DNA of 41,435 bases from Bacteroidales bacterium (lineage in GTDB: Bacteria; Bacteroidota; Bacteroidia; Bacteroidales; Paludibacteraceae): contig JAGHSG010000055.1 of assembly GCA_018066005.1 (NCBI GenBank), positions 1 through 41,435 of the forward strand, in the 5' to 3' direction. The position numbers were made by a program, and so were the translations under genes. Position 1 is the stretch's first letter; the number at the start of each line of letters is the position of its first letter. The notes beneath the pieces are model-generated. The model did not search any database. It saw only the letters and a list, made by a program, of their open reading frames with translations, and was not told where the DNA came from. Positions 1,624 to 16,694 of the stretch are shown here, in pieces.

Positions 1624-1697
1624 TGATCCGGCCGGGAGTCGAACCCGGGACCCACAGCTTAGAAGGCTGTTGCTCTATCCAACTGAGCTACCGGACC
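1624..1697 (-). tRNA. tRNA-Arg (anticodon TCT)
   Basis: A 74-nt cloverleaf read by hand: acceptor GGTCCGG/CCGGATC, D-arm GCTC-AGTTGGATA-GAGC, anticodon stem ACAGC/GCTGT with loop CTTCTAA, and T-arm CCGGG-TTCGACT-CCCGG. The discriminator is A and no CCA is encoded. Confidence 0.93.
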
Positions 1698-2223: not shown

Positions 2224-4583
2224 AATGTATTTATTTTTATATTTTTTATTTCAGGATCACGCATCAGTTGGTCGGTAATCTGGTCTTCCAGACCCGCTTG
2301 CACCGCCCTTTTGACGGGTCGGGCACCCATCTTGGGGTTATACGCTTTTTCCAACAGTTGCTTCTTGGCAGCAGCCGAAACAGACAGACGATGTCCCTGT
2401 TCAAGCAGTCGTTTTTGCAGCAACGACACCTCTATATCTATTATGCGCGCGATGTGCTCACGCGTAAGCGGCGCAAAGGTGATAATGTCGTCAATACGGT
2501 TCACAAACTCCGGCGGGAAGGTCTTCTCCAACGCTTTCTTCATCGTCTGTTCGGCAACCGTTTGTGTCACCTCGCCGGACTCAAAGCCCACGCCGGCACC
2601 AAAATCGTTCAACTGCCTTGTTCCTACATTAGATGTCAGGATAATAATCGTATTGCGGAAATCAACCGAACGTCCCTGACGGTCTGTCATCCGACCCTCA
2701 TCCAGCACCTGCAAAAGGACATTGAAAATGTCCGGATGGGCTTTCTCTATCTCATCAAACAGCACAATCGAATAGGGGCGACGGCGAACAGCCTCGGTCA
2801 GTTTACCGCCCTCCTCGTGTGCTATATACCCCGGAGGCGCTCCCACCAACAGCGAGACGGTATGTTTCTCCATATATTCCGACATATCAAAGCGGATGAC
2901 AGCATCCCGCGAGCCGAACATCTCTTCTGCCAAGCACTGTGCCAAGTAGGTCTTGCCGACACCTGTCGGACCCAGGAAGAAGAAAGTCCCTATCGGACGG
3001 CGGGGGTCACGCAACCCCAGACGCGAACGGCGAATAGCCCGTACGACGCGGTCGATGGCCTGGTCCTGACCCATAATACGACGGTGCAGCGCCTCCGGCA
3101 GAGCCATTAACTGCTCATTTTCCTTGCGAGCCACCCGCTGAACAGGCACGCCCGACATGACGCTGACCACACGCGCTATATCTTCCGCCGTCACCACTTT
3201 GGACGTGCATCGCGCACCTGCCTCGTCCATAGCGTCGATGGCTTTGTCGGGCAGAGCACGGTCGGTGATGTAACGCTCCGTGAGCACAGCACAGGCCTGC
3301 AAAGCTTCGTCGGTGTAAATCTTGCGGTGATGGTCGCTGTACGAAGACCTCAAACCGTGCAGTATTTGAACGGTCTCATCAATCGTTGTGGGCCGAACGG
3401 TCACTTTTTGGAAACGCCGTTCCAAAGCGGCATCTTTCTCGATGGACAGACGATATTCAGCCGTCGTGGTGGCACCAATGCACTGCACTTCGCCCCGCGA
3501 CAGAGCCGGTTTGAGTATATTGGCGGCATCCAACGAACCGGACGCGTTGCCGGCACCTATGATGGTGTGTATTTCGTCGATGAACAGGATGATTTCGGGA
3601 TGGTTGAACAGTTCGTCCACAATATCTTTCATCCGCTCCTCAAACTGTCCGCGGTAAGTCGTACCTGCCACAATAGAAGCCATATCCAACGCCACAACAC
3701 GCAATTTATTCAGGTGTTTGGACTTGGACTTGACCCATTTCAGTGCCAGCCCTTCCACAATAGCCGTCTTACCCACGCCGGCGTCGCCTATCAGGATAGG
3801 GTTATTCTTCTTGCGACGCGCCAGAATCTGCTCCAACCTGTTTATCTCCGCACGGCGACCGATGACGGGGTCCAATAAGCCCTCGCGTGCCATCTGTGTC
3901 AAGTCGCGACTGAAATAATCCAAGGCGGGCGTATCCGACTCGGGTTCTTTGGGCGGCTCGTTATTGCCGTTATCTTCGGGCACATCGGGCGTCGGCATAT
4001 CCGACTTGCGTCCCGGGCGCGAGTTGAGCAACAGGAAACCAGCACCTGCTATGTGCGAGAATAAACTATTTGCCATACGCTCTGCCTCCTTGGCAAACTC
4101 TTTCTCTTCCTCCTCATCGGGACGGGGCTTCTCCACCGCCGAATCCAGACGTTCGGCAGGGTGCGGATACAGCCGCTCTATCGAGTTATAATTGATATTA
4201 TAATCCCTGTTCAGCAACATAGCCGGGTAGTTAGCCCGCTCTTGCAGCAGCGCCAACAGGATGTGCACCGACCCGCACGCGTTCGCCTGGTAAGCCTCAC
4301 GCTCCAACATAGCCATCCGCAGAATAAGAGATGTCGTGTCCGTGAAATCGGGATGAATAGGCGGATTAGGAGTCAGCGTTCTCAGTTGGAGATTCTCCTC
4401 CAAGTTTTGTTTGAGTTCGGTGAACATCACCCCACTGCGGCAAAGCAACTCAAACGCCTTGCCCTCTTGCAAACGCAATATGCCCAGCATCAGATGCTCC
4501 GGCCCCAGCAGCACGTTGTGCAGACGGCCGACCTCCTCCGAGGCGTATTGCATAATCTTATTAAAATTTTGTGTATAGTTCAT
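2220..4583 (-). CDS. Class I AAA+ Clp/Hsp100 ATPase, ClpC-type (ATP-dependent Clp protease ATP-binding subunit)
   Basis: 787 aa with an N-terminal Clp repeat domain and two Walker A motifs ([15 protein letters not shown] and [15 protein letters not shown]). There is no long ClpB-type middle domain. A VGF tripeptide follows TSNVG in the second ATPase domain, at the position of the ClpP-docking loop in ClpC. Confidence 0.9.
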
Positions 4584-6604: not shown

Positions 6605-7879
6605 CTACTTCTTTTTCCTCAACTTGCGAATCTCCGCATTCAGGTCTGCTATCTCTTTCTCTTGATTGGTAATCGTTTTCAGCAGCGAGTTCAGTTCCTC
6701 GTTCTCGATGGTCGTCGGGTACTGCTCGTCCACGCGCTGCAAGAAATCGCTCAGCACGTTCATATAGTTAATGAACGCGTCGTATGCCGACTCAAACGTC
6801 GATGACCCTTGGTCGATATGGTTCATATAATGCAGGAAATTGGCATCCTGCAACAGGGTCCAGTCACGTTTCAAACCCTTGTCCTGACACAGGTGAACAC
6901 GCTCCGTCACGGCGTAGAACTTATTCGTTGCCTCCTGCTGCAAATCGTTACCTAAGAACGTGCTCAAATCCTTGCCCTCGCCCGTCCACGTCAGCGGATA
7001 CGGCGACACGATAGGTTCGGTAACTGTCATCTTCTTGGCGGCCTCGGCGGGGGTCAGGAACGTCATACCCTGCTCAATGGCATAGTAAGGCAACGCTTTC
7101 ATAAACTCAAAGATACCCGTACCCTCCGTCTGCATGATACCAAACGTCTCAGCACCCATCCACAGGTTAACCAACTGCTCCGACTCGGGAGTGGAAGCCA
7201 ACTTATTCACAAATTTCTCTGCATCCATCGGGAAATCTGCCCAATTGGGGTCGCTGAAATGGAAACTCAACGCATCACTCAAACCCGCATTGCGCAGCAG
7301 CAACGACTGCTTATTCGATATGCAGGTCGAATACAGATAATTGGCCGACTTGTACGACAAGATATGCTTGGCACCTTCGCTCATAATCGTCTTGTAACCC
7401 CATTTCAACGCCTGCTCGGCTATCTCGTCCGAATAGAGCAACTCGGTGTTCCACAACGTGTTAGACGTAACGCCCAACACATCGCTCACCTTGTCGGCGT
7501 GCTGCTTCAACTGCTCCTCGAACTCCGACGGGTTGCACTGTGCCGCCAAGGAATACGAATAAGGAACACGGACGAACTCCACACATTTGGTGGCTGCCAG
7601 GTCCTTCAGCACGTCTATCATCTCCGGCACAAACTGCTCAAACAATTCCAGCATAGTACCACTAACCGCCAAACCGCAGTGGAACTTGTTCTTACTCAAC
7701 CTAATCATCTCGCGAATGGTCTTGCACAAAGGCATATACGACGTGTTAGTCAACCACGTTATATACTCCTCCGTGGCCATATCATCGTAATAATAATGGT
7801 CTTGCCCTATCTCAAAAAAACGGTATCTTTTCAACCGATACGGGGCATGCATTTGAAAACAAAAACAGATATTCTTCAT
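6605..7879 (-). CDS. Glycoside hydrolase family 57 alpha-glucan-active enzyme
   Basis: 424 aa. The N-terminus (ICFCFQMHAPYRLKRYRFF...) is typical of GH57 proteins found in Bacteroidota glycogen clusters. The C-terminus has a coiled-coil tail. Confidence 0.85.
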   Translation of the reverse strand: MKNICFCFQMHAPYRLKRYRFFEIGQDHYYYDDMATEEYITWLTNTSYMPLCKTIREMIRLSKNKFHCGLAVSGTMLELFEQFVPEMIDVLKDLAATKCVEFVRVPYSYSLAAQCNPSEFEEQLKQHADKVSDVLGVTSNTLWNTELLYSDEIAEQALKWGYKTIMSEGAKHILSYKSANYLYSTCISNKQSLLLRNAGLSDALSFHFSDPNWADFPMDAEKFVNKLASTPESEQLVNLWMGAETFGIMQTEGTGIFEFMKALPYYAIEQGMTFLTPAEAAKKMTVTEPIVSPYPLTWTGEGKDLSTFLGNDLQQEATNKFYAVTERVHLCQDKGLKRDWTLLQDANFLHYMNHIDQGSSTFESAYDAFINYMNVLSDFLQRVDEQYPTTIENEELNSLLKTITNQEKEIADLNAEIRKLRKKK

Positions 7880-7895
7880 ATTTCTTAATTATTTA

Positions 7896-7994
7896 TTCTA
7901 TTAGGCGACCTCGTCGCCGTTCTATTAGCAAGCTCTGCTTGCGTTCTATTAGGCAGCTTGCTGCCGTTCTATTAGGGCTCTGCCCGTTCTATTC
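7896..7994 (-). repeat. Tandem array of a constant linker plus four variable GC-rich mini-hairpins (intergenic, within the operon)
   Basis: On the plus strand, TTCTATTA starts at 7896, 7920, 7944 and 7967, and TTCTATTC at 7987. Between them lie GGCGAC-CTC-GTCGCC, GCAAGC-TCT-GCTTGC, GGCAGC-TT-GCTGCC and GGGC-TCT-GCCC. The sense (minus) strand linker is UAAUAGAAC. Confidence 0.92.
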
Positions 7995-9133
7995 TACCAT
8001 CCTAACACGCGATCATAAATCGCTCTCACTTTCAGTCCGGCGTCGTACCAGCGGATATTATTCACTTCTTCCCGACCCAACTCGCTCAGCGACTTGTACA
8101 TGGCGGGGTACTTGACAATAGCATAGATAGCGTCCGCCATCGCGTCTATATCCCAGTAATCGGTCTTGATAGCATGACTCAAAATCTCCGCACAACCCGA
8201 CTGATAACTGATAATACTCGGACAACCTACCTGCATAGCCTCCAACGGAGAGATACCGAAAGGCTCACTCACACTCGGCATAATATAGACATCCGAGTCC
8301 GCCAATATCTGCTGAACCTGACTGCCGCGCATAAAGCCCGGGAAATGGAATTTGTCCGCTATACCGCGTTTAGCCACCAAATCAATCATCTCAGCCATCT
8401 TGTCGCCGCTACCCGCCATAACAAAACGCACGCCGTCCGTCTTCTCCAACACGCGAGCCGCAGCCTCCACAAAGTACTCCGGACCTTTCTGCATCGTGAT
8501 ACGGCCTAAAAAAGTAACTAACTTATCCTTCCTCGGATGCTTCTTAAAATCTTCCGGATTGGGCAAAGGTTCCACGGCATTGTGCACCGTACTCACCTTG
8601 TCCGGATGCTGACCGTATTTCTCAATCACCGTCCGGCGCGTCAGGTTGCTCACGCACATAATATGGTCCGCCTCGTCCATACCCCGACGCTCAATAGCAT
8701 ATACCGTGGGGTTGACATTACCGCGACTGCGGTCAAAATCCGTGGCATGAACGTGGATAACCAACGGCTTACCCGTGATATGCTTGACGGCTACGCCTGC
8801 CGGATAAGTCAACCAGTCGTGACTGTGAATAATATCAAACTGCTCCCGATAAGCCAACTGAGCCGCTACGGCCTCGTAGTTGCCTATCTCCTCCACCAAA
8901 TTATCCGGATAGCGACCCGAGAACTCGATACATCCCCTGCCCGGCACATCCACACTGTTGGCACCTATGATACGCAGGAAAGACTGGTCCTCGTCGCCCC
9001 ACGGACGGGGCAACACAAACGTAATATCCATATCCGGCTGCTGCGCCATACCGCGCGTCAAACCGTAACTGGCGGTGCCGAGACCGCCCAAGATATGCGG
9101 GGGAAACTCCCAACCAAACATCAATGCTCTCAT
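7994..9133 (-). CDS. GT4-family (GT-B) glycosyltransferase, probable alpha-glucan synthase
   Basis: 379 aa with the EX7E-type motif SEPFGISPLEAMQVGCP. It sits between the GH57 and debranching-type genes, and the upstream stop overlaps its start by 4 nt. Confidence 0.85.
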   Translation of the reverse strand: MRALMFGWEFPPHILGGLGTASYGLTRGMAQQPDMDITFVLPRPWGDEDQSFLRIIGANSVDVPGRGCIEFSGRYPDNLVEEIGNYEAVAAQLAYREQFDIIHSHDWLTYPAGVAVKHITGKPLVIHVHATDFDRSRGNVNPTVYAIERRGMDEADHIMCVSNLTRRTVIEKYGQHPDKVSTVHNAVEPLPNPEDFKKHPRKDKLVTFLGRITMQKGPEYFVEAAARVLEKTDGVRFVMAGSGDKMAEMIDLVAKRGIADKFHFPGFMRGSQVQQILADSDVYIMPSVSEPFGISPLEAMQVGCPSIISYQSGCAEILSHAIKTDYWDIDAMADAIYAIVKYPAMYKSLSELGREEVNNIRWYDAGLKVRAIYDRVLGW

Positions 9134-11082
9134 ACGTTCTGCTGTGTTTCAAAATGGTTCATCGTATCAATTACCGAAATAGCCGCAGCCACCGAAGGCG
9201 CGTAAGACATACCGCCGTGACCCTTGTAAGGAGGGTTACCGTCGTATAACTCGTTCAGCGTACCTATGCACAACTCACTCATCTCCTGCTCATAACCTAC
9301 CAGCAGACGCTGCATAAAACTGATGCCGCTGTGCTTGTACACGTTCATATAGGCACGCGCGTATGCCGCTATCGTGTAGGGCCATACGGGACCGTTATGG
9401 AAATTGCGGTCACGCTCCAACTGACCGCCTATATAGACCGGTCTGTAACCGCCGCTCTTGGGCGACAACGTACGCAGACCGCGAGGCGTCAGCAACTCCT
9501 TCGTGCATATATCGACCACCGCTTTCTGCTGCTTTCTGTCCAACGGCGAATAAGGCAAGGCGGCCGCCCAAATCATATTCGGACGAACTTCCTTGTCGTG
9601 GTAAGCGTCTATCACGTAGTCATCCAGATAAACACCGTTCCAGAAAGTGCCCACAAAAGCGTCTTTCATCAACTCCGCCTGATAATCCATCAGGTCCGCC
9701 AGGTTATCCTTACCTATCGCACGCATCATCTCCGCCGTGAAGCACATAGCATTGTACCACAACGCGTTTATCTCCACCACATAACCCGTTCGCGGCGTGA
9801 TAGGCCGTCCGTTCTCAACCGCATTCATCCACGTGGCAGGACGGTCACGACCCTCAACCCATACCAGACCGTTACGGTGAACTTGTGCACGGGGATGACG
9901 GTTCTTGCGGTAATAATCCACAATCTGCTTACTGATATCCGCGTACTTACCGGCCGCATCTGCCACCGAGTACTTATGGGCGTATTTCTGGAAAGCCCGC
10001 ACCAACCACAGCAGCGCATCCGGCTCGTCCATACCGTATAACTCGCCATCTACGCGACCCGTCTCCATAAACGTCCGAACCATAGGAACAGCCGTCTCGT
10101 CAATGATGGCCTGCCAGTACTCGGGACGGTCTATGTCTAACGTGCAACTCGGGGTGGCAAAGAACTCGTCACGCGCCGAAGCACCAAACCACGGATAACC
10201 CGCCAACAGATAACACTTGTCCCCGACACGCTTATAGAACTGCGCCGCACTGTTCTTCAGGCACGCAAACATATCCTGTCTCGGCTGACGGCGTAACATC
10301 TCCTTGTCCCACACGGCTTTCAACGTCGTCGGCTTAATCTCACTGATACCCGCACTGAAAATGACACTCTCGCCTTTTTTCATCGGCACTTCAAAATACC
10401 CGGGCACCATCTGGTCCTCCTTGTAGGCAAAGCCACGCTCCTGCTCTTTCTGATACTCGATATCTTTGTACCACTGCGGGTTATGCGTATATGTCACTTT
10501 CTTCGAGAACTGCATAAACAACTCCGGAAACTGCGCATACATCCTGTTCTTCCTGCCGTTAGCCACCTCGTCCATATCCGTGTTGGCATCCCCGTTGGCG
10601 TGCGTCAACTCGTTCACGCTGCGGAAAGCCAGGAAAGGCTGAAAACGCAACACACACGGACTGCCAGCCTCTACCAACGTGTAACGAATCAGTACACGCG
10701 GCTCAAAACTGACCAGCAGACGCTCCTTGGTCAGGATAACACCGCCCACGCGGTAAGTCGTCTTGGCTATCACTTCGCAGTTGAACTCGCGGATATACTT
10801 ATGCCCGTTCGGCATAAACATATTGTTGCCGTACTTGTGCAGACCTAAGTTAAACGCGGCACCATGCTGAATAACCGTCTCGTCCAACGAAGATAACAGC
10901 ACGTAGTTATCTTCACCCAACTCAGGCAAAGGCAATACCAACTGACCGTGGTACTTGCGCGTGTTGCAATCTACCAGCGTCGTCGAGTTATACGTGCCCG
11001 CACGGTTCGTGCGAATCATCTCCTTACTCAGACTACGCTCCAGATTAACCAACAATGTCTTGTCAAAATTCAAATAACTCAT
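9130..11082 (-). CDS. Glycogen debranching enzyme family protein (amylo-alpha-1,6-glucosidase type, GDE_N/GDE_C)
   Basis: 650 aa. The N-terminus (MSYLNFDK...NRAGTYNSTTLVDCNTRKYHGQLV) and an (alpha/alpha)6-like C-terminal half are typical of this family. Confidence 0.85.
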   Translation of the reverse strand: MSYLNFDKTLLVNLERSLSKEMIRTNRAGTYNSTTLVDCNTRKYHGQLVLPLPELGEDNYVLLSSLDETVIQHGAAFNLGLHKYGNNMFMPNGHKYIREFNCEVIAKTTYRVGGVILTKERLLVSFEPRVLIRYTLVEAGSPCVLRFQPFLAFRSVNELTHANGDANTDMDEVANGRKNRMYAQFPELFMQFSKKVTYTHNPQWYKDIEYQKEQERGFAYKEDQMVPGYFEVPMKKGESVIFSAGISEIKPTTLKAVWDKEMLRRQPRQDMFACLKNSAAQFYKRVGDKCYLLAGYPWFGASARDEFFATPSCTLDIDRPEYWQAIIDETAVPMVRTFMETGRVDGELYGMDEPDALLWLVRAFQKYAHKYSVADAAGKYADISKQIVDYYRKNRHPRAQVHRNGLVWVEGRDRPATWMNAVENGRPITPRTGYVVEINALWYNAMCFTAEMMRAIGKDNLADLMDYQAELMKDAFVGTFWNGVYLDDYVIDAYHDKEVRPNMIWAAALPYSPLDRKQQKAVVDICTKELLTPRGLRTLSPKSGGYRPVYIGGQLERDRNFHNGPVWPYTIAAYARAYMNVYKHSGISFMQRLLVGYEQEMSELCIGTLNELYDGNPPYKGHGGMSYAPSVAAAISVIDTMNHFETQQNV

Positions 11083-11097
11083 ATCGTTTTTTACTAA

Positions 11098-11988
11098 CTA
11101 TCTTCCTAAATCCGACCAACCGAAATCCGACATCATAACATACACCGACTTGGCCTTCTCCATCACGCCGTAGTCGATACTTATATTCGGGCAGGTCGGG
11201 AACATATCCTGTATGAACGCCTCCTCCTTATCCGTACCCATACACCACGCACCCTGCTTGAACTTGTCCGCTATCTCCGGCAGGCTACGCGCTATCTCGT
11301 TACCTATCGTGCGCAGGTTCCACAGAAAAATACCCGAGTTCCACAAGAACTCGCCACTCTGATAGAACACCTTGGCCAAGTCGCTATCCGGCTTCTCCGT
11401 AAAAGTCTTCACCTTACGCAATGTCCCATCGCCCTGCTCCATCTGGATATAGCCATAACCCGTCGCGGGACGCGTCGGTTGCATACCTAAGGTCAGTAAC
11501 GTGTCGTGCTCACCCACAAAAGCCAACCCCTCACGTATCACGTTCTTAAAAACATCTTCCTGCATAATCCGGTGATCCGACGGCGTCACTACCATACTCA
11601 CGTTCAACCGCTCGTCGTTCCAATCCACCTCTTCACCTTCACGCATCGGACGACCGAAGACTTGCTCAAACACCATACTCCGTATCCGGGCCACCGCATA
11701 CGCTATGCACGGTGCCGTGTTGCGACGGGTCGGCTCCCATAATATCTGATGCGGCGACAGGTCCGGCAGTTGCTCCATAATAATATCCTTGTATAGCACA
11801 TTCGTCACCAGCAGCAGATGCTCTTCCGGTACAACCTCGCGAAAAAGGTCCACCGTCATCTGCAAGGGCGAACGACCCGTTCCGAATACATCCAAGAACT
11901 GCTTGGGACGCTCGATTCGGCTGAATGGCCAAAAACGTCTCCCCGCTCCCCCGGCCATAATAACGCAATAATTGTCTGTCTTTTTCAT
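11098..11988 (-). CDS. Sugar-1-phosphate nucleotidyltransferase (mannose-1-phosphate guanylyltransferase-like, N-terminal domain only)
   Basis: It carries the MAGGAGRRFWPFSR nucleotide-binding motif. I moved the start to MKKTDNY at 11988, because the longer ORF (to 12018) would cover the promoter box. The protein ends right after ...GWSDLGR. Confidence 0.8.
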   Translation of the reverse strand: MKKTDNYCVIMAGGAGRRFWPFSRIERPKQFLDVFGTGRSPLQMTVDLFREVVPEEHLLLVTNVLYKDIIMEQLPDLSPHQILWEPTRRNTAPCIAYAVARIRSMVFEQVFGRPMREGEEVDWNDERLNVSMVVTPSDHRIMQEDVFKNVIREGLAFVGEHDTLLTLGMQPTRPATGYGYIQMEQGDGTLRKVKTFTEKPDSDLAKVFYQSGEFLWNSGIFLWNLRTIGNEIARSLPEIADKFKQGAWCMGTDKEEAFIQDMFPTCPNISIDYGVMEKAKSVYVMMSDFGWSDLGR

Positions 11989-12007
11989 GATTTTTCGAAT
12001 TAGCGTG

Positions 12008-12015
12008 CAAATATA
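12008..12015 (-). promoter_or_regulatory. Candidate -7 box for the 11988-1909 operon
   Basis: The minus strand reads TATATTTG, which matches TAnnTTTG. The -33 position is only CTTG. Confidence 0.4.
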
Positions 12016-12075
12016 CAACTTTTATTTCATATATGCAAGCGCGCGCGTGATTTTTTTCATTTAGTACCCAAAAAA

Positions 12076-12107
12076 TTTGCACAAAAAATATATTTTCCTT
12101 ACCTTTG
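12076..12107 (+). promoter_or_regulatory. Bacteroides-type promoter for the GldD-like / pcrB / tadA / dusB block
   Basis: TTTG lies at 12076-12079 and TACCTTTG at 12100-12107, with 20-nt spacing. Confidence 0.65.
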
Positions 12108-12113
12108 CACAAC

Positions 12114-12172
12114 CATCAATGCGCAAAGCGCACATCAATTGCCGTCAGGCAACCATCCATGCGCAAAGCGCA
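12114..12172 (+). repeat. Three tandem mini-hairpins with CAUCAA-type linkers filling the 5' UTR
   Basis: The hairpins are TGCGC-AAA-GCGCA (12120-12132), TTGCC-GTCA-GGCAA (12139-12152) and TGCGC-AAA-GCGCA (12160-12172). Each is preceded by CATCAA or CATCCA. CCAACAATG with the start codon follows. Confidence 0.9.
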
Positions 12173-12178
12173 CCAACA

Positions 12179-12769
12179 ATGAAAAAACTTGTTTTTTCAA
12201 TATCAATCCTCGCCCTGCTGCTCTCCTGCACCCGTCCCGCTACGCCCAAGGAGTACGGCTACTTCCGCATCGCCCTCCCCCCACACGAATACATCAATTC
12301 GCAAAGCGAACCAACAATGCGCAGAGCGCAACAACAATTGCCAAAGGCAAGCATCAATTATCAACTGTCAACTGCCGCGCAGTTGCAGCCGCTGGACTCC
12401 CCCGGCTGGTTCAACATCCACTACCCCACTCTCAACGCCACCATACACTGCTCATATATGCCTGTGCATAACAACCTCAAAAGTCTTATCGACGACTCCG
12501 AAGAGTTCGTCTATTCACATACCGTCAAGGCGTCCGCCATACCCGAACAGGCGTACAGCGACCCCGTCAACCGCGTCTATGGCGTCTATTACGAACTTGA
12601 AGGCAACACGGCTACACCCGCCCAGTTCTGGGTAACCGACTCCACACGCCATTTTTTCCGCGCGTCCGTCTATATAGACTGCATACCCAATCAGGACTCT
12701 CTCGCACCCGTCATCGACTACCTGCAAACGGACTGCCGGGTACTCATCGAATCACTACGCTGGCAATGA
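12179..12769 (+). CDS. Lipoprotein, tentatively GldD-like
   Basis: A lipobox (ILALLLSC) follows MKKLVFS. The PKEYGYFRIALPPHEY segment resembles my recollection of the GldD N-terminus. I placed the start at 12179 because the ORF-track start at 12077 lies upstream of the -7 box. Confidence 0.6.
   Translation: MKKLVFSISILALLLSCTRPATPKEYGYFRIALPPHEYINSQSEPTMRRAQQQLPKASINYQLSTAAQLQPLDSPGWFNIHYPTLNATIHCSYMPVHNNLKSLIDDSEEFVYSHTVKASAIPEQAYSDPVNRVYGVYYELEGNTATPAQFWVTDSTRHFFRASVYIDCIPNQDSLAPVIDYLQTDCRVLIESLRWQ
12292..12385 (+). repeat. A second mini-hairpin array of the same design, in frame inside the GldD-like CDS
   Basis: The hairpins are TTCGC-AAA-GCGAA (12298-12310), TGCGC-AGA-GCGCA (12318-12330) and TTGCC-AAA-GGCAA (12338-12350), at a 20-nt period with CATCAA/CAACAA linkers. 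CAACTG-CCGCG-CAGTTG follows at 12369-12385. The array encodes INSQSEPTMRRAQQQLPKASIN... Confidence 0.9.
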
Positions 12770-13461
12770 ACATCCTTGAATACATACGGACCAAACAACA
12801 GATGCACCAACACATGCTCGCCGTCTTACTCGACCCCGAGCATCCTATTCCTTTTCCCAAAGGCGAACTCGACGCGGCCGACCTCATCCTCGTCGGGGGC
12901 AGCACAGGCGGCATTTCCCCTGATTTCATCGGACAAATACGCAGTCTGACCCGCCGCCCTGTCGTCCTCTTCCCGGGCAACCCGCAGCAGTTCACGCCGC
13001 AGGCGGATGCGCTCCTCTTCCTCTCCGTCCTCTCGTCCCGCAATGCCGACTTACTCGTCGGGCAGCAGATAGCCGCAGCAGCCACCATCCAAGCGTCCGG
13101 CATAGAGACTATCCCTATGGGTTATATACTTATCGACGGCGGCAAGGACACCGCTGTCCTGCGCGCCTCGCACTCCACACCCCTGTCCCAGTCCGATATA
13201 CCAACCATCGTCAGCACCGCACTCGCGGGACAGATGATGGGTAAACAGCTTATCTATCTCGAAGCCGGATCAGGTGCCAAAACGCCTGTATCCATCGACA
13301 TAATACGTGCTGTCCGCAGCGTCCTCTCCATCCCCCTTATCGTCGGTGGCGGCATCACCACACCCGACGCTATGAAAGCCGCTTTCCGCGCCGGTGCCGA
13401 CATAGTCGTCATCGGTAACCACTTCGAGCACCACCCCGAACAACTCCCCCTTTTCTGCTAA
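12766..13461 (+). CDS. pcrB: Geranylgeranylglyceryl / heptaprenylglyceryl phosphate synthase family protein (PcrB-like)
   Basis: 231 aa with a TIM-barrel pattern and the YLEAGSGA and IVGGGI phosphate-binding motifs. It overlaps the upstream gene by 4 nt. Confidence 0.85.
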   Translation: MNILEYIRTKQQMHQHMLAVLLDPEHPIPFPKGELDAADLILVGGSTGGISPDFIGQIRSLTRRPVVLFPGNPQQFTPQADALLFLSVLSSRNADLLVGQQIAAAATIQASGIETIPMGYILIDGGKDTAVLRASHSTPLSQSDIPTIVSTALAGQMMGKQLIYLEAGSGAKTPVSIDIIRAVRSVLSIPLIVGGGITTPDAMKAAFRAGADIVVIGNHFEHHPEQLPLFC

Positions 13462-13473
13462 CCCCCTCTGTCT

Positions 13474-13908
13474 ATGACCGAAGATGAAAAATATATGACT
13501 CTCGCCCTCGCCGAAGCCGAACAGGCTCGGCAGCGCAACGAAGTACCTATCGGATGCGTCATCGTCTGCCAAGGGCAGATAGTAGGACGGGGACATAACC
13601 TCACCGAGACCCTACAGGACGTCACCGCACATGCCGAGATACAGGCTATCACGGCAGCCGCGCAGACGCTGGGCGGCAAATACCTCACCGACTGTACCCT
13701 CTATGTCACCGTCGAACCCTGTGTCATGTGTGCCAGCGCTATCGGCTGGGCACAGGTGCCGCGACTCGTCTATGGAGCACCCGACACCAAACGCGGCTAC
13801 ACGCTCTTTGCTCCGCAAGCCCTGCACCCCAAATGTACCGTCACCGCCGGCATCCTCGCCCCCGCCTGCTCCCAACTCATCTCCACCTTCTTCACCTCCA
13901 AACGCTAA
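13474..13908 (+). CDS. tadA: tRNA adenosine(34) deaminase
   Basis: 144 aa with the HAE and PCVMC zinc-binding motifs. Confidence 0.93.
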   Translation: MTEDEKYMTLALAEAEQARQRNEVPIGCVIVCQGQIVGRGHNLTETLQDVTAHAEIQAITAAAQTLGGKYLTDCTLYVTVEPCVMCASAIGWAQVPRLVYGAPDTKRGYTLFAPQALHPKCTVTAGILAPACSQLISTFFTSKR

Positions 13909-13911
13909 ACT

Positions 13912-14910
13912 ATGCTCTACCTCGCTCCCATGGAAGATGTTACGGACCCCGCTTTCCGTATGTTATGCAAACGTTTCGGTGCCGACCGTGTCTATACCGA
14001 GTTCGTCAATGCCGACGCACTCGTACGCGATGTCAACGCCGCTACGCGTAAACTTACCATATCCGATGCCGAGCGACCCGTGGCTATTCAGATATATGGA
14101 CGCGATGCCGACTCGATGGCGGAAGCGGCACGTATCGTCGAACAGGCACGGCCGGATTTTATTGATATCAACTTCGGCTGCCCCGTCAAAAAAGTCGCCG
14201 GCAAAGGTGCCGGAGCCGGACTCCTACGCGACGTGCCGCGTATGCTTGACATAACACGCGCCGTAGTCAATGCCGTCTCTATACCCGTCACCGCCAAGAC
14301 ACGACTCGGATGGGATGCCGACCACCTCATCATCGTCGATCTCGCCGAAGCGCTCCAGGACTGCGGCATACGCGAGTTGGCTATACACGGACGGACACGC
14401 GCACAGATGTACACAGGCGAAGCCGACTGGACACTCATCGGAGCCGTTAAGAACAACCCCCGCATGCACATCCCTATCATCGGCAACGGCGATGTCACCA
14501 CACCCCAACGCGCCAAGGAGTGCTTCGACCGCTACGGCGTCGATGCCATCATGATCGGACGCGCCACCTTCGGCTGCCCCTGGATCTTCTCCGACATAAA
14601 GTCCTACCTCACCGGTTCCCCGATTCACCGATTCACCGATTCACCGATTCCACGCACAATGCAATGGTGCGTCTCCATCCTCAAAGAGCATGTCGAGCGT
14701 TCCATCGAGTGGATAGGTGATGAGCGGAAAGGTATCGTGCATAGTCGCCGCCACTTTGCCAACAGTCCCGTCTTCAAAGGGTTGTACGACTTCAAGCAGA
14801 CCCGCATAGCCCTCCTCCGCGCCGAGACCAAAGACGAAGTCTTCTCCATCATGGATGACATCGTCTCCCGCTGGTCCCCCGCCTACAACGAGAATCTAAA
14901 CAACAGATGA
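13912..14910 (+). CDS. dusB: tRNA dihydrouridine synthase
   Basis: 332 aa with Dus motifs LAPMEDVTD, DINFGCP, IHGRTR and GNGD. An octamer-repeat insertion lies between the barrel and the C-terminal domain. Confidence 0.92.
   Translation: MLYLAPMEDVTDPAFRMLCKRFGADRVYTEFVNADALVRDVNAATRKLTISDAERPVAIQIYGRDADSMAEAARIVEQARPDFIDINFGCPVKKVAGKGAGAGLLRDVPRMLDITRAVVNAVSIPVTAKTRLGWDADHLIIVDLAEALQDCGIRELAIHGRTRAQMYTGEADWTLIGAVKNNPRMHIPIIGNGDVTTPQRAKECFDRYGVDAIMIGRATFGCPWIFSDIKSYLTGSPIHRFTDSPIPRTMQWCVSILKEHVERSIEWIGDERKGIVHSRRHFANSPVFKGLYDFKQTRIALLRAETKDEVFSIMDDIVSRWSPAYNENLNNR
14612..14651 (+). repeat. Octanucleotide tandem repeat (CCGATTCA) inside dusB
   Basis: The units are CCGGTTCC (degenerate), CCGATTCA three times (14620-14643) and CCGATTCC. 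Together they encode SPIHRFTDSPIP. Confidence 0.95.
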
Positions 14911-16694
14911 ACATCTGTCCGATTGCGTTGTTGGCTTTCCCATTGCGGATGATAAACGACTTCACTAACTTTCAAATAAACAGATAACCAGTCTTTTATT
15001 TTATATCTCATATTGAGATAACATAATCCTCCACGGCCATAGACGGCCCGATTAGTGGAAGCATAGAGGACATCGTTTTCATACACATATACGCGATTAT
15101 CCCAATTACGAATATCAAATCCTTGCAGACGCAGTTGCAGGGTAATTGGCACTTGATTGAACGTATAACAGATATCTTGATATACACTCACGCCCCATGT
15201 CAGTGCCGTTGAATCACCTTTTACCAACGAACCGTCCACTTGCGTGCGCAAATGCCATCCGGCATCTTCCCAAGTATATTGATAACGAAGCGAATAGGTA
15301 TTTTTTTCACCTTTACGTTTAGCACGGAATTTCCAAAGCATATTCATTTGGGAAGTCGTTTCATATTCCGCTTGCGCAAAAACGTCCCATCCTGTGCTCG
15401 GGTGATGAATTCCATACTTAACATCGGCAAAACGGAAACCGTCGGCATAAAGGGAGAATATCCATTTAGGTACTAAACGAATCTCTGTACCAATGAATAG
15501 ACCATTTTCATCATTCACCTTGGTTGATTCGGCAAAAGCATACGCGTAACGATTGTGATACGTAGGCGAGAAATAGCGATATTGTACCAAAAAAGATAAA
15601 TCCTGAATAGGTGTAACACGCAGTCCCAGCAACGTGGCAACGCCCCAACGGGAAGCGGAAGTCTGCCGATTTGTCCCTGCATCATACGAGGCTGCCACCT
15701 CACCAAAGACATCCCATTTGCCTTTTACGAATCGACCATTCACGCCAAAAGATGTATAAGTAGAATCGGTGTGATAAATATCTTCCAACACGGTCAAGCC
15801 AACCTGAAAACAATGCCCGCGATAAGTGGTGTTCAGTCCTGCCACGTGATGCCATAAGGTCTTCTCTTTACGCAGTGAATACAATGTCGTTATATCCACC
15901 GGGCCAAAATTAAGCGTCGCTGCCACGCCATGCAAATAATCGTAGGAAGGACTGACTGATGAATATTTTTTAACACCTTCTGTCCCGTTGGACGTTGTCA
16001 AGAAATAAGCGCTCTTGCCGCGATGAACGGTTTGACCAAGGACTAACCCCTGCCCAAACTGCCCCTCAAAATTACCCAAAACCAGTGTTTTAACATGAGG
16101 TATCAAATCACGCACCTGAATATATCCGCCGTAATTCAATTCTTTCCAGGGTTGATTGGGTGCACGCAAGACAGTAAAGCCGGCTTGCACCTTGTTCCGA
16201 TAATTAAAACGATAACGCCAATTGGCATAAACAGGATCACCCGTAAAATTCTCCGCATTGCGCACATCGGTTCGGAGTGTTAATTCATGATTGGCATAAC
16301 GAAATATATCTTTCGGGTAAAAAGTGTCCTTTTCATCGGACTTCTCGGCTACTAAGAAGTACGATAAATTACGAATTTCATAATCCCGCAAAGAAGAGAT
16401 TAACTGCAATTCGCAAATATCTGCCATCGGGTGCTTGTCCACATAATACAGAATGTCATCAATCTGCATAGGCGACAGGAAGCGTAAGCGTTGCAAATCT
16501 TCAACGGATACGGTGTTTATATTCATTTTATGCTGATGCAATTCATATAAATCTTGCGATAAATCTTCCCAGTCGGTAGTTATTCCTTCTTCCGCCAACG
16601 ATTCATAAATATCTGCAAGAATATCTTCTACCGATTGAGCATACAGCACTACCGGTAAACAACAAAGCAATATGAATAGGGTTATTTTTTTCAC
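14883..16694 (-). CDS. Outer-membrane beta-barrel protein with an N-terminal ComEA-like helix-hairpin-helix domain
   Basis: 603 aa with a signal peptide. The segment NINTVSVEDLQRLRFLSPMQIDDILYYV matches the HhH pattern N-I-N-T-A-s-x-E-x-L. The rest is an aromatic-rich strand pattern. Its 3' end overlaps the dusB 3' end by 28 nt (convergent). Confidence 0.8.
   Translation of the reverse strand: MKKITLFILLCCLPVVLYAQSVEDILADIYESLAEEGITTDWEDLSQDLYELHQHKMNINTVSVEDLQRLRFLSPMQIDDILYYVDKHPMADICELQLISSLRDYEIRNLSYFLVAEKSDEKDTFYPKDIFRYANHELTLRTDVRNAENFTGDPVYANWRYRFNYRNKVQAGFTVLRAPNQPWKELNYGGYIQVRDLIPHVKTLVLGNFEGQFGQGLVLGQTVHRGKSAYFLTTSNGTEGVKKYSSVSPSYDYLHGVAATLNFGPVDITTLYSLRKEKTLWHHVAGLNTTYRGHCFQVGLTVLEDIYHTDSTYTSFGVNGRFVKGKWDVFGEVAASYDAGTNRQTSASRWGVATLLGLRVTPIQDLSFLVQYRYFSPTYHNRYAYAFAESTKVNDENGLFIGTEIRLVPKWIFSLYADGFRFADVKYGIHHPSTGWDVFAQAEYETTSQMNMLWKFRAKRKGEKNTYSLRYQYTWEDAGWHLRTQVDGSLVKGDSTALTWGVSVYQDICYTFNQVPITLQLRLQGFDIRNWDNRVYVYENDVLYASTNRAVYGRGGLCYLNMRYKIKDWLSVYLKVSEVVYHPQWESQQRNRTDVHLLFRFSL

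Follow-up and report, generated by a model that had tools for sequence, protein, structure and literature searches.

The window analysed here is a contig of 41,435 nucleotides from a gut bacterium of the Paludibacteraceae (Bacteroidales bacterium, assembly GCA_018066005.1, contig JAGHSG010000055.1). On its minus strand, the spacer between the genes for a GT4 glycosyltransferase (7994-9133) and a GH57 enzyme (6605-7879) holds four different, perfectly self-complementary hairpins set between five copies of a 9-nt linker (D-AATAGAA-Y). This array, labelled array A, is not conserved: it is an allele that segregates at a hypervariable spacer, since sister strains carry other repeats in its place and two independent samples reproduce it. 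We assign a probability of about one half to the reading that array A is an allele of a “hairpin minisatellite”, which would be palindromic at the DNA level through slippage and template switching, any effect on RNA being secondary. Its modules of 20-24 nt, each a 9-nt linker and a short GC-rich perfect palindrome, apparently belong to an undescribed class of repeats, “constant linker plus variable mini-palindrome”, in Paludibacteraceae gut bacteria.

From 7996 to 7877 the minus strand reads TAG(stop)-AATAGAAC / GGGC-AGA-GCCC / TAATAGAAC / GGCAGC-AA-GCTGCC / TAATAGAAC / GCAAGC-AGA-GCTTGC / TAATAGAAC / GGCGAC-GAG-GTCGCC / TAATAGAAT-AAATAATTAAGAAAT-ATG. The features are as follows; linkers were recognised by sequence, and the hairpins by sequence and predicted fold.

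7994..7996, minus strand: TAG stop codon of the GT4 glycosyltransferase gene (Pfam Glycos_transf_1 / Glyco_transf_4), its G being the first base of linker 1
7986..7994, minus strand: linker 1, GAATAGAAC
7975..7985, minus strand: hairpin 1, GGGC-AGA-GCCC, also present in contig L231
7966..7974, minus strand: linker 2, TAATAGAAC
7952..7965, minus strand: hairpin 2, GGCAGC-AA-GCTGCC, with a predicted fold of a 5-bp stem and a CAAG loop
7943..7951, minus strand: linker 3, TAATAGAAC
7928..7942, minus strand: hairpin 3, GCAAGC-AGA-GCTTGC
7919..7927, minus strand: linker 4, TAATAGAAC
7904..7918, minus strand: hairpin 4, GGCGAC-GAG-GTCGCC, with an identical unit in contig L238
7895..7903, minus strand: linker 5, TAATAGAAT
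7877..7894, minus strand: A/T-rich leader AAATAATTAAGAAAT, then the ATG of the GH57 gene (Pfam Glyco_hydro_57)

The linkers are A-rich, contain TAA and TAG in every copy, and comprise three exact copies and two with one mismatch; the periods are 20, 23, 24 and 24 nt. All 22 stem pairs are Watson-Crick, and by simple arithmetic the chance of matching 22 bases is about 4^-22. The initial annotation, which described four mini-hairpins with a constant 9-nt linker and differing paired stems, was thus borne out in every detail. The unit carries stop codons in both orientations, which fits its confinement to non-coding sites. The surrounding minus-strand cluster is of glycogen type and also encodes an NTP-transferase, a debranching enzyme, a porin and a ClpB-like ATPase (Pfam). 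Its other gene junctions overlap or measure at most 15 nt, so that array A does fill the only sizeable gap, as previously stated. A single AATTAAG heptamer, the repeat unit of an alternative allele, is retained in the GH57 leader of the array allele.

The minimum-energy RNA fold of array A consisted of exactly the four hairpins (z = -2.8). The DNA fold gave the same four on both strands (z = -4.7 and -3.6), and none of 200 shuffles folded as well. We scanned 1.56 Mb (the window and related loci) for three or more tandem hairpins sharing a linker word and recovered array A and two simple-repeat tracts. Both ends of array A were found in independent Logan contigs. L231 (SRR28771868) ends with ...TAG-AATAGAAC-GGGC-AGA-GCCC-TAATAGAAC-GG, and L238 (SRR21150881) starts with ATAGAAC-GGCGAC-GAG-GTCGCC-TAATAGAATAAATAATTAAGAAAT-ATG. 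The allele is therefore real, with the support of two independent samples. Rfam gave no match at gathering score in the window and nothing relevant at E<=1 in 7700-12500, and no published description of the unit sequences was found in the literature searched, in agreement with the earlier failure to recognise a described family. A sigma-70 promoter and terminator scan detected neither a terminator on the sense (minus) strand of array A nor a convincing promoter, and the Bacteroidetes -7 motif (TAnnTTTG) was not seen there by eye. On the plus strand at 7904-7974, three of the four hairpins are followed by GTTCTATTAG, forming weak terminator-like sites (3 found against 0.4 expected). These antisense sites could stop antisense transcription into the operon.

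Data were available for about 50 kb of this species and for one syntenic region in its relatives. Searching the genome collection with GH57 yielded 80 loci (L001-L080), almost all from Paludibacteraceae / Bacteroidales gut metagenome-assembled genomes (MAGs), the closest at 89% protein identity. Array A was present in none of the 80 GT4-GH57 spacers. The closest relatives had short, plain spacers, most others had A/T-rich tandem repeats of 7-8 nt (AGTTTAA, GTTGATA, AATTAAA etc.), and a few had one to three GC hairpins directly past the GT4 stop; L025, L033, L046 and L068 had GC hairpins in this position and then A/T-rich repeats ahead of the ATG. Contigs of the same species complex were located through exact-protein look-ups, among which those with GH57 and the esterase gave no match. 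The species was found in Logan, ENA and NCBI data and was not found in JGI above about 84% GH57 identity. In L081, where the GT4 protein is identical and the DNA 97-98% identical, the gene is followed by TGA-ATTAAG AATTATG AATTAAG AATTAAG. The whole spacer is (AATTAAG)4 or 5 in L082, L083, L084 and L237, and (TGAATCGG)x4 in L085. Among horse-gut runs, SRR21150881 and SRR28771868 have the array allele, and SRR21151033 and SRR28408146 the other. No hypervariable repeat patches of this kind occurred in 22 kb of other window sequence compared with sister strains (97-98% identity).

Arrays of linker plus palindrome recur at other sites, for which the initial annotation had proposed a search: upstream of the NTP-transferase gene in L085, in gldD, in dus, and in a wider family described below. 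The window sites are listed here.

12113..12178, plus strand: array B, found together with array C by a scan for tandem hairpins and forming the whole gldD 5′ leader, CCATCAA-TGCGC-AAA-GCGCA / CATCAA-TTGCC-GTCA-GGCAA / CCATCCA-TGCGC-AAA-GCGCA / CCAACA-ATG
12292..12358, plus strand: array C, in frame within gldD (Pfam GldD_lipo), CATCAA-TTCGC-AAA-GCGAA / CCAACAA-TGCGC-AGA-GCGCA / ACAACAA-TTGCC-AAA-GGCAA / GCATCAAT
14609..14650, plus strand: octamer repeat (TCACCGAT)x5 inside dus; L081 has a B-type hairpin array at exactly the same site

A search for GldD homologues gave a series of alleles, whose DNA was recovered. Array B consisted of a single unit in L085 and of three units elsewhere, and its loops varied between strains. 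At site C the alleles carried 0, 3 or 5 hairpin units. L226 possessed an additional ACAACAA-TGCACC-TTT-GGTGCA and an exact duplicate of the TTGCC-AAA unit; in L231 the units were reordered and one imperfect hybrid hairpin was present (5′ arm TTCGC, 3′ arm GCGCA). L081 had (TCAACGC)x5 in place of the site C hairpins. At the dus site, L081 (about 4520-4570) reads CAACAA-TTGCGCC-CTC-GGCGCAA-CCAACAAT-GCGCC-TCT-GGCGC, and L231 has a third repeat type. Since the ancestral Dus loop is YL-D/S-TGELLPPRSM, the repeats at this site replace native coding sequence with the frame kept. In L085 an A-type array, GAATAGAAC-GGCAC-AAA-GTGCC-TAGTAGAAC-GCAGC-AGA-GCTGC, lies upstream of the NTP-transferase gene, where the window has none. 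Hairpin arrays and repeats of 7-8 nt thus swap at the same sites between strains, in both directions.

Across alleles the stems at a given position were the same, and the loops varied (AAA, GAA, GGA, AGA, ACA; GTCA, ATCA, GTA), mostly by A<->G changes. Loops also occurred as reverse complements (TTT, TCT, CTC versus AAA, AGA, GAG). We tabulated 12 stems, six A-type and six B-type. All 65 pairs were Watson-Crick, with neither G:T pairs nor mismatches, and both sides had changed at 4 of 6 pair positions in the A-type stems and at 5 of 7 in the B-type. When the 3′ arms were re-dealt at random, full pairing was obtained in 0.13-0.14% of trials. The pair counts derive from a foot-anchored alignment; a MAFFT alignment of the six A-type units was structurally inconsistent.

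Arrays of the same design were found in the Dus loop of other species, with the linker GGTCT[G/T][T/A]CA (GGTCTKWCA). An example is L030 (420-472), which reads GGTCTTTCA-GTCC-GAA-GGAC / GGTCTTTCA-GT-GAA-AC / GGTCTTTCA-GC-GAA-GC / GGTCTTTCA-GCGGC-TCC-GCCGC. The first hairpin-array scan required stems of at least 4 bp and missed this GGTCT family because most of its stems are only 2-3 bp; such arrays were later caught by a linker-anchored scan, which detected 31 GGTCT array sites in 18 loci. With the loci oriented so that GH57 lies on the plus strand, all 31 sites were on the minus strand. No site lay in a plus-strand gene, though the plus strand holds 63% of the coding length. Array sites of different species are partly orthologous, and hence these counts are not independent. 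Of the 31 sites, 26 were inside long open reading frames (ORFs): two Dus loops, PcrB and an RNase R-like gene, and also the dus leader and the pcrB-tadA spacer. The last two were counted because the GGTCT unit is stop-free and context was judged by long open frames, which inflates the ORF count.

In the forward direction the GGTCT unit is stop-free in three frames, and its reverse complement has stops in every frame. This would confine the unit to genes on one strand if its orientation on the chromosome does not vary. In the GT4-GH57 spacers of L015, L051, L025, L055, L075 and L046 the reverse complement is present (ACC-GCTTCGC..., TGACAGACC), on the same chromosomal strand and antisense to the operon. 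The GGTCT arrays lie on the C-rich strand. In dus the 3′ ends of the arrays run into native codons (GCCGC-GGTCT-ATG = P-R-S-M). On the plus strand the array A linker is GTTCTATTA, which has the same length as GGTCTTACA of the wider family and 5 of 9 bases in common with it; the two linkers may be homologous.

A-type linkers were found at two sites, B-type at three, and GGTCT-type at nine or more per region. All five hairpin sites of this species fall in a stretch of 6.8 kb (P ~0.004 under random placement in 41 kb), and none was found in the remaining 34 kb. GC skew is -0.2 to -0.29 (2-kb windows) across 7000-15000, whatever the gene strand, and this stretch coincides with the cluster of repeat patches; in the rest of the window the skew is near 0 to -0.15. 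Viral contigs were scanned for A-, B- and GGTCT-type units and the metagenome collection for the A-type pattern alone. In viral contigs, 158 places had two copies of TAATAGAAC 10-16 nt apart, none with a GC-rich palindrome between them, and B-type and GGTCT-type scans returned only chance or ordinary tandem or coding repeats and no palindromic arrays. In the metagenome collection, none of the 14 matches to a stricter A-type pattern was palindromic.

We suggest that the arrays arise from a process acting on DNA hairpins and not on RNA, because pairing is strand-symmetric, loops flip, a hybrid hairpin exists, units are gained and lost, arrays exchange with simple repeats, modules occur in coding DNA, and the GGTCT family is oriented by chromosomal strand. 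Where DNA is single-stranded at the replication fork, the palindromes would fold out into mini-hairpins of great stability, and the extruded hairpins would promote slipped-strand gain or loss of whole modules. Intrastrand template switching would copy a change in one arm onto the other, so that stems stay Watson-Crick and differ among modules and loops invert, while turnover of the array would keep the linkers uniform. Selection would act as a filter alone: stop-bearing modules such as those of array A would survive in non-coding spacers, and stop-free ones also in frame within genes. Template switching between the arms of inverted repeats is known to produce arm homogenisation, seemingly compensatory changes in one step, and spacer inversion (PMC8794818, PMC8604942). 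If the C-rich strand is the lagging strand, the strand bias of the GGTCT family would follow. Other hairpin-forming repeats expand in an orientation-dependent way, namely when the nascent lagging strand holds the more stable hairpin. Where the initial annotation left the choice between selection and a generating mechanism acting on structure, the generating mechanism appears the better option, and a selected, conserved RNA is not supported.

In the transcript, array A should fold into four stable stem-loops, with the GT4 stop on one side and the A/U-rich GH57 leader on the other. These may incidentally block 3′-exonucleases or alter GH57 translation, as a side effect that varies between strains and not as a conserved function. 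Since sister strains carry an unstructured heptamer repeat instead, any role of array A in mRNA is not conserved.

Several points weigh against the slippage and template-switching model. Its main weakness is that slippage cannot seed new sites, and a linker shared between separate sites requires a further process, for example ectopic template switching, conversion or true mobility. Under simple concerted evolution the stems should become alike as well, and the combination of uniform linkers and differing stems is not naturally predicted by it. The direction of replication is derived solely from GC skew. Furthermore, hairpins right past the GT4 stop arose in several species, which could reflect selection on the mRNA, and arrays A, B and C all have purine-rich loops on the sense strand.

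The first of these weaknesses would be removed if the modules were ultra-small non-autonomous mobile elements, similar to repetitive extragenic palindromic (REP) sequences and moved by an enzyme acting on single-stranded DNA hairpins (a Y1 HUH enzyme of the RAYT (REP-associated tyrosine transposase) or IS200-IS605 type, or something unknown). We regard this as possible but on balance unlikely. Such an enzyme would recognise the linker from its sequence and the hairpin from its shape, and would add modules beside existing linkers on one replication strand. Constant linkers, free yet paired stems, tandem growth, dispersal and strand bias would all be explained. Linker families do occur at separate sites (the A-type in the window spacer and at the L085 NTP-transferase gene, the B-type at three, the GGTCT-type at numerous sites in many species), the GGTCT sites are one-stranded throughout, and new modules with new stems appear between alleles, such as TGCACC-TTT-GGTGCA in L226. 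Insertion of IS200/IS605 elements is strand-specific and targets the lagging-strand template (PMC5027513). Habits that resemble those of the modules here are known from REPs, which contribute TAG stop codons, occur within ORFs and form head-to-tail clusters (PMC3733652). However, the window ORFs scanned with Pfam included no transposase gene, the stems have no GTAG or CGTC tag beside them, and modules of 16-24 nt are below the size of any known REP. Neither a target duplication nor a clean insertion boundary is visible, and the 3′ ends of the dus arrays merge into native codons. The sites of this species are also clustered within 7 kb, with none in the other 34 kb, and they alternate with hairpin-free repeats of 7-8 nt.

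A bolder form of this proposal would treat the modules as Paludibacteraceae “nano-REPs” of 16-24 nt, each with a sequence-specific 9-nt linker and a mini-hairpin recognised by shape only. They would be copied adjacently by a strand-specific, replication-coupled enzyme acting on single-stranded DNA, and would colonise leaders, intercistronic spacers and, with the reading frame kept, loops of housekeeping proteins, array A being a divergent local member. We consider this form doubtful.

The initial annotation saw in array A an element setting differential mRNA stability, as REPs do in malEFG. In that case the array would be selected as RNA, its hairpins protecting the upstream mRNA or setting the GT4:GH57 ratio, and its linkers providing stop codons or single-stranded protein-binding sites beside the GH57 start. 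The position of array A in the sole sizeable gap of the operon, the minimum-energy RNA fold, the purine-rich sense-strand loops and the independent acquisition of GC hairpins after the GT4 stop in L025, L033, L046 and L068 would agree with this. Moreover, heptamer repeats found close to start codons, on their upstream side, may according to one proposal be sites of a translational regulator, including in Paludibacter (PMC4679880). A conserved RNA is nevertheless improbable. In the comparison of orthologous spacers, which the initial annotation had itself named as a test, the array is missing from all 80 related species and from sister strains, which have (AATTAAG)4-5 or (TGAATCGG)4, and the same architecture occurs within coding sequences (gldD, dus of L081, and dus, pcrB and the RNase R-like ORF elsewhere), where a role in mRNA stability makes no sense. 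The 65 base pairs include no G:U, the loops flip, the sense strand lacks a terminator-like tail, Rfam has no match, and the GGTCT copies in the GT4-GH57 spacer are antisense to the operon, their orientation being tied to the chromosome strand rather than to transcription.

An assembly or amplification artefact, raised at the outset and suggested by the breaking of Logan contigs within or at the edge of array A, has a negligible probability, as both ends match base for base in independent samples and arrays B and C recur in at least 10 contigs from different runs. Some other readings were rejected. Footprints of hairpin-forming transposon excision (P-nucleotide-like) and snap-back repair of local sequence do not fit GC-rich stems that are unrelated to the A/T-rich flanks. 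Integron attC sites, DNA uptake sequences and sequences similar to KOPS (FtsK-orienting polar sequences) were dismissed on anatomy. A CRISPR array has repeats of 24-48 nt and non-palindromic spacers, whereas the constant part here measures 9 nt, palindromes make up the variable parts and no cas genes are present in the window. An intrinsic terminator was rejected for want of a U run on the sense strand of array A.

Further observations concern the gldD and dus regions. Array B sits 3′ of a Bacteroidetes-type TTTG...TAccTTTG promoter motif (read by eye). Its linkers contain in-frame ATGs, because of which gene callers give GldD a 20-residue N-terminal extension (MREAHINCRQATINAQSAPT-MKK...). 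In L085, with its single array B unit, the upstream ATG opens an upstream ORF of 7 codons whose TGA overlaps the true gldD ATG. The Logan gldD call in L085 is only 103 aa; read manually, the repeat region contains no stop or frameshift. Some strains (L085; P0141, P0143, P0146, P0147) have (CTGTTNT)n heptamers in the region coding for the GldD signal peptide (ITCYLLSVLCCLFS...). Just 3′ of array C, at 12369-12385 on the plus strand, native coding sequence (YQLSTAAQLQ) contains a conserved 7-bp hairpin, CAACTGC-CGC-GCAGTTG; it is preceded by TATCAAC-TGTCAAC, apparently the starting point of the (TCAACGC)n allele. In the Dus loop YL-TGELLP-PRSM, a family-wide hot spot, the repeats are always in frame and comprise octamers, B-type hairpins, CCTACTA heptamers together with CCCCCT-TT-AGGGGG and, in other species, long GGTCT-type arrays. 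Just 5′ of the dus ATG (window 13906-13912), the window, L085, L231 and L232 differ in having 0, 3 or 5 heptamers (TAAACTC / TAATCTC / TACACTC), and the dus leader of other species carries GGTCT-type hairpin units.

In the 80 related loci (1.52 Mb), period 7 was the commonest among tandem repeats (169 of 580; period 14, 64; period 21, 41). Since the Tandem Repeats Finder (TRF) control set of 14 metagenome loci was picked by a repeat-like pattern and is not clean, we claim only the period-7 peak and no excess of tandem-repeat density. These repeats often lie directly 5′ of start codons or upstream of promoters, and their sequences vary by site and species. At the edge of the window, 1-141 on the minus strand is the 5′ end of a 16S rRNA gene, with short tandem repeats at 429-453 and 658-686 upstream of it; a tRNA gene occupies 1624-1697 (minus strand). 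L081 1-1648 is part of a gene for a Laminin_G_3-like protein of 3092 aa, and the window beyond 17521 has different ORFs, a structural difference.

If the DNA-level reading is true, the arrays would be a natural case in which replication-driven processes produce perfect hairpins and seemingly “compensatory” changes while RNA is not under selection, which would be a warning for the discovery of structured RNAs by covariation. Hairpin modules of very small size can remodel 5′ leaders, spacers between cistrons and loops of proteins (GldD, Dus, PcrB, RNase R-like) between strains that are 97-98% identical. The arrays are thus a source of rapid protein variation in gut Bacteroidales, and probably of expression variation. 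They also cause breaks in short-read contigs: Logan and NCBI MAG contigs (L081, L083-L087, L231, L238) repeatedly terminate inside or at the edge of repeat patches, which fragment assemblies and may hide array variation within samples. Were the modules mobile, no smaller palindromic mobile units would be known, and the strict strand bias would be a direct handle on the enzyme.

Among known systems, variable number tandem repeats (VNTRs) or minisatellites are defined by unit number or content differing between strains, as is the case for array A (present or absent), B (1 versus 3) and C (0, 3 or 5). Mycobacterial interspersed repetitive units (MIRUs) are, like array A, direct tandem repeats that are intercistronic in operons and vary in copy number and content between strains. 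Unlike array A, their units are 40-100 bp long with small ORFs overlapping the flanking stop and start; here the units are 20-24 nt and only the upstream stop overlaps. The arrays also differ from MIRUs and VNTRs in that each unit has a different perfect palindrome, the families occur in genes as well, and alleles at one site can be unrelated repeat types. Rickettsia palindromic elements (RPE) are palindromic repeats tolerated in frame within protein-coding genes, but they are single insertions of 100-150 bp with conserved sequence; the modules are likewise found in frame, as tandem units of 16-24 nt.

Comparable heptamer direct repeats are known as short tandemly repeated repetitive (STRR) sequences in cyanobacteria. 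The TAACTGA heptamer repeats (PMC4679880) resemble the alternative spacer alleles, (AATTAAG)4-5, and those of many other spacers in the family, as 7-nt repeats just upstream of an ATG. The linker TAATAGA-AC also resembles such stop-rich heptamers, and Paludibacter is a reported heptamer host (PMC4679880). However, the array A motif is interrupted by GC hairpins, and the repeat sequences vary by site and strain instead of forming one heptamer.

The motif GCGAAGC / GCGNAGC was described as an “extraordinarily stable mini-hairpin DNA” (GCGNAGC / GCGNNAGC, PMC13037366). It is exact in B-type alleles (GC-GAA-GC, GC-GGA-GC) and in most GGTCT units (GC-GAA-GC, GC-GCA-GC), and all units share with it the form of C:G-closed mini-hairpins with tri- or tetraloops. 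Array A itself has loops AGA, (C)AA(G), AGA and GAG and not the G-N-A / G-N-N-A loop, and the motif denotes a structure, not a family of genomic repeats. Quasipalindrome correction and short-range template switching (PMC8794818, PMC8604942) match the arrays in producing perfect stems through arm homogenisation and in inverting loops, but their descriptions concern isolated inverted repeats, and neither tandem arrays that share a linker nor dispersed families.

The likeness to REPs and bacterial interspersed mosaic elements (BIMEs) noted in the initial annotation holds in part. Both are short, GC-rich repeated palindromes in species-specific families with strain variation and head-to-tail clusters; a REP terminus may contribute a TAG stop, in-frame copies exist within ORFs, and the elements occur between co-directional genes and are transcribed (PMC3733652). 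However, REP/BIME palindromes are imperfect, 20-40 nt long and conserved in sequence, whereas the modules are 16-24 nt with perfect stems of 2-8 bp, and the palindromes of array A are 11-15 nt, perfect and unlike between adjacent units. At the stem foot, where REPs have an unpaired GTAG or CGTC tag, the A-type has GAAC and the B-type CAA(T); ATAG or GTAG occurs in some linkers alone, 3 nt from the stem, unlike the position of the REP tag. BIMEs alternate in orientation, and here all linkers are direct. REPs are dispersed genome-wide and associated with RAYTs; this species has five sites in 6.8 kb and none in the other 34 kb (about 50 kb available), and no RAYT was present among the window ORFs scanned with Pfam. 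Many module copies lie inside coding regions, and neighbouring stems differ while the linker is constant. Overall, array A is best placed among the short palindromic or VNTR-type repeats of bacteria, within a wider, apparently undescribed Paludibacteraceae class.

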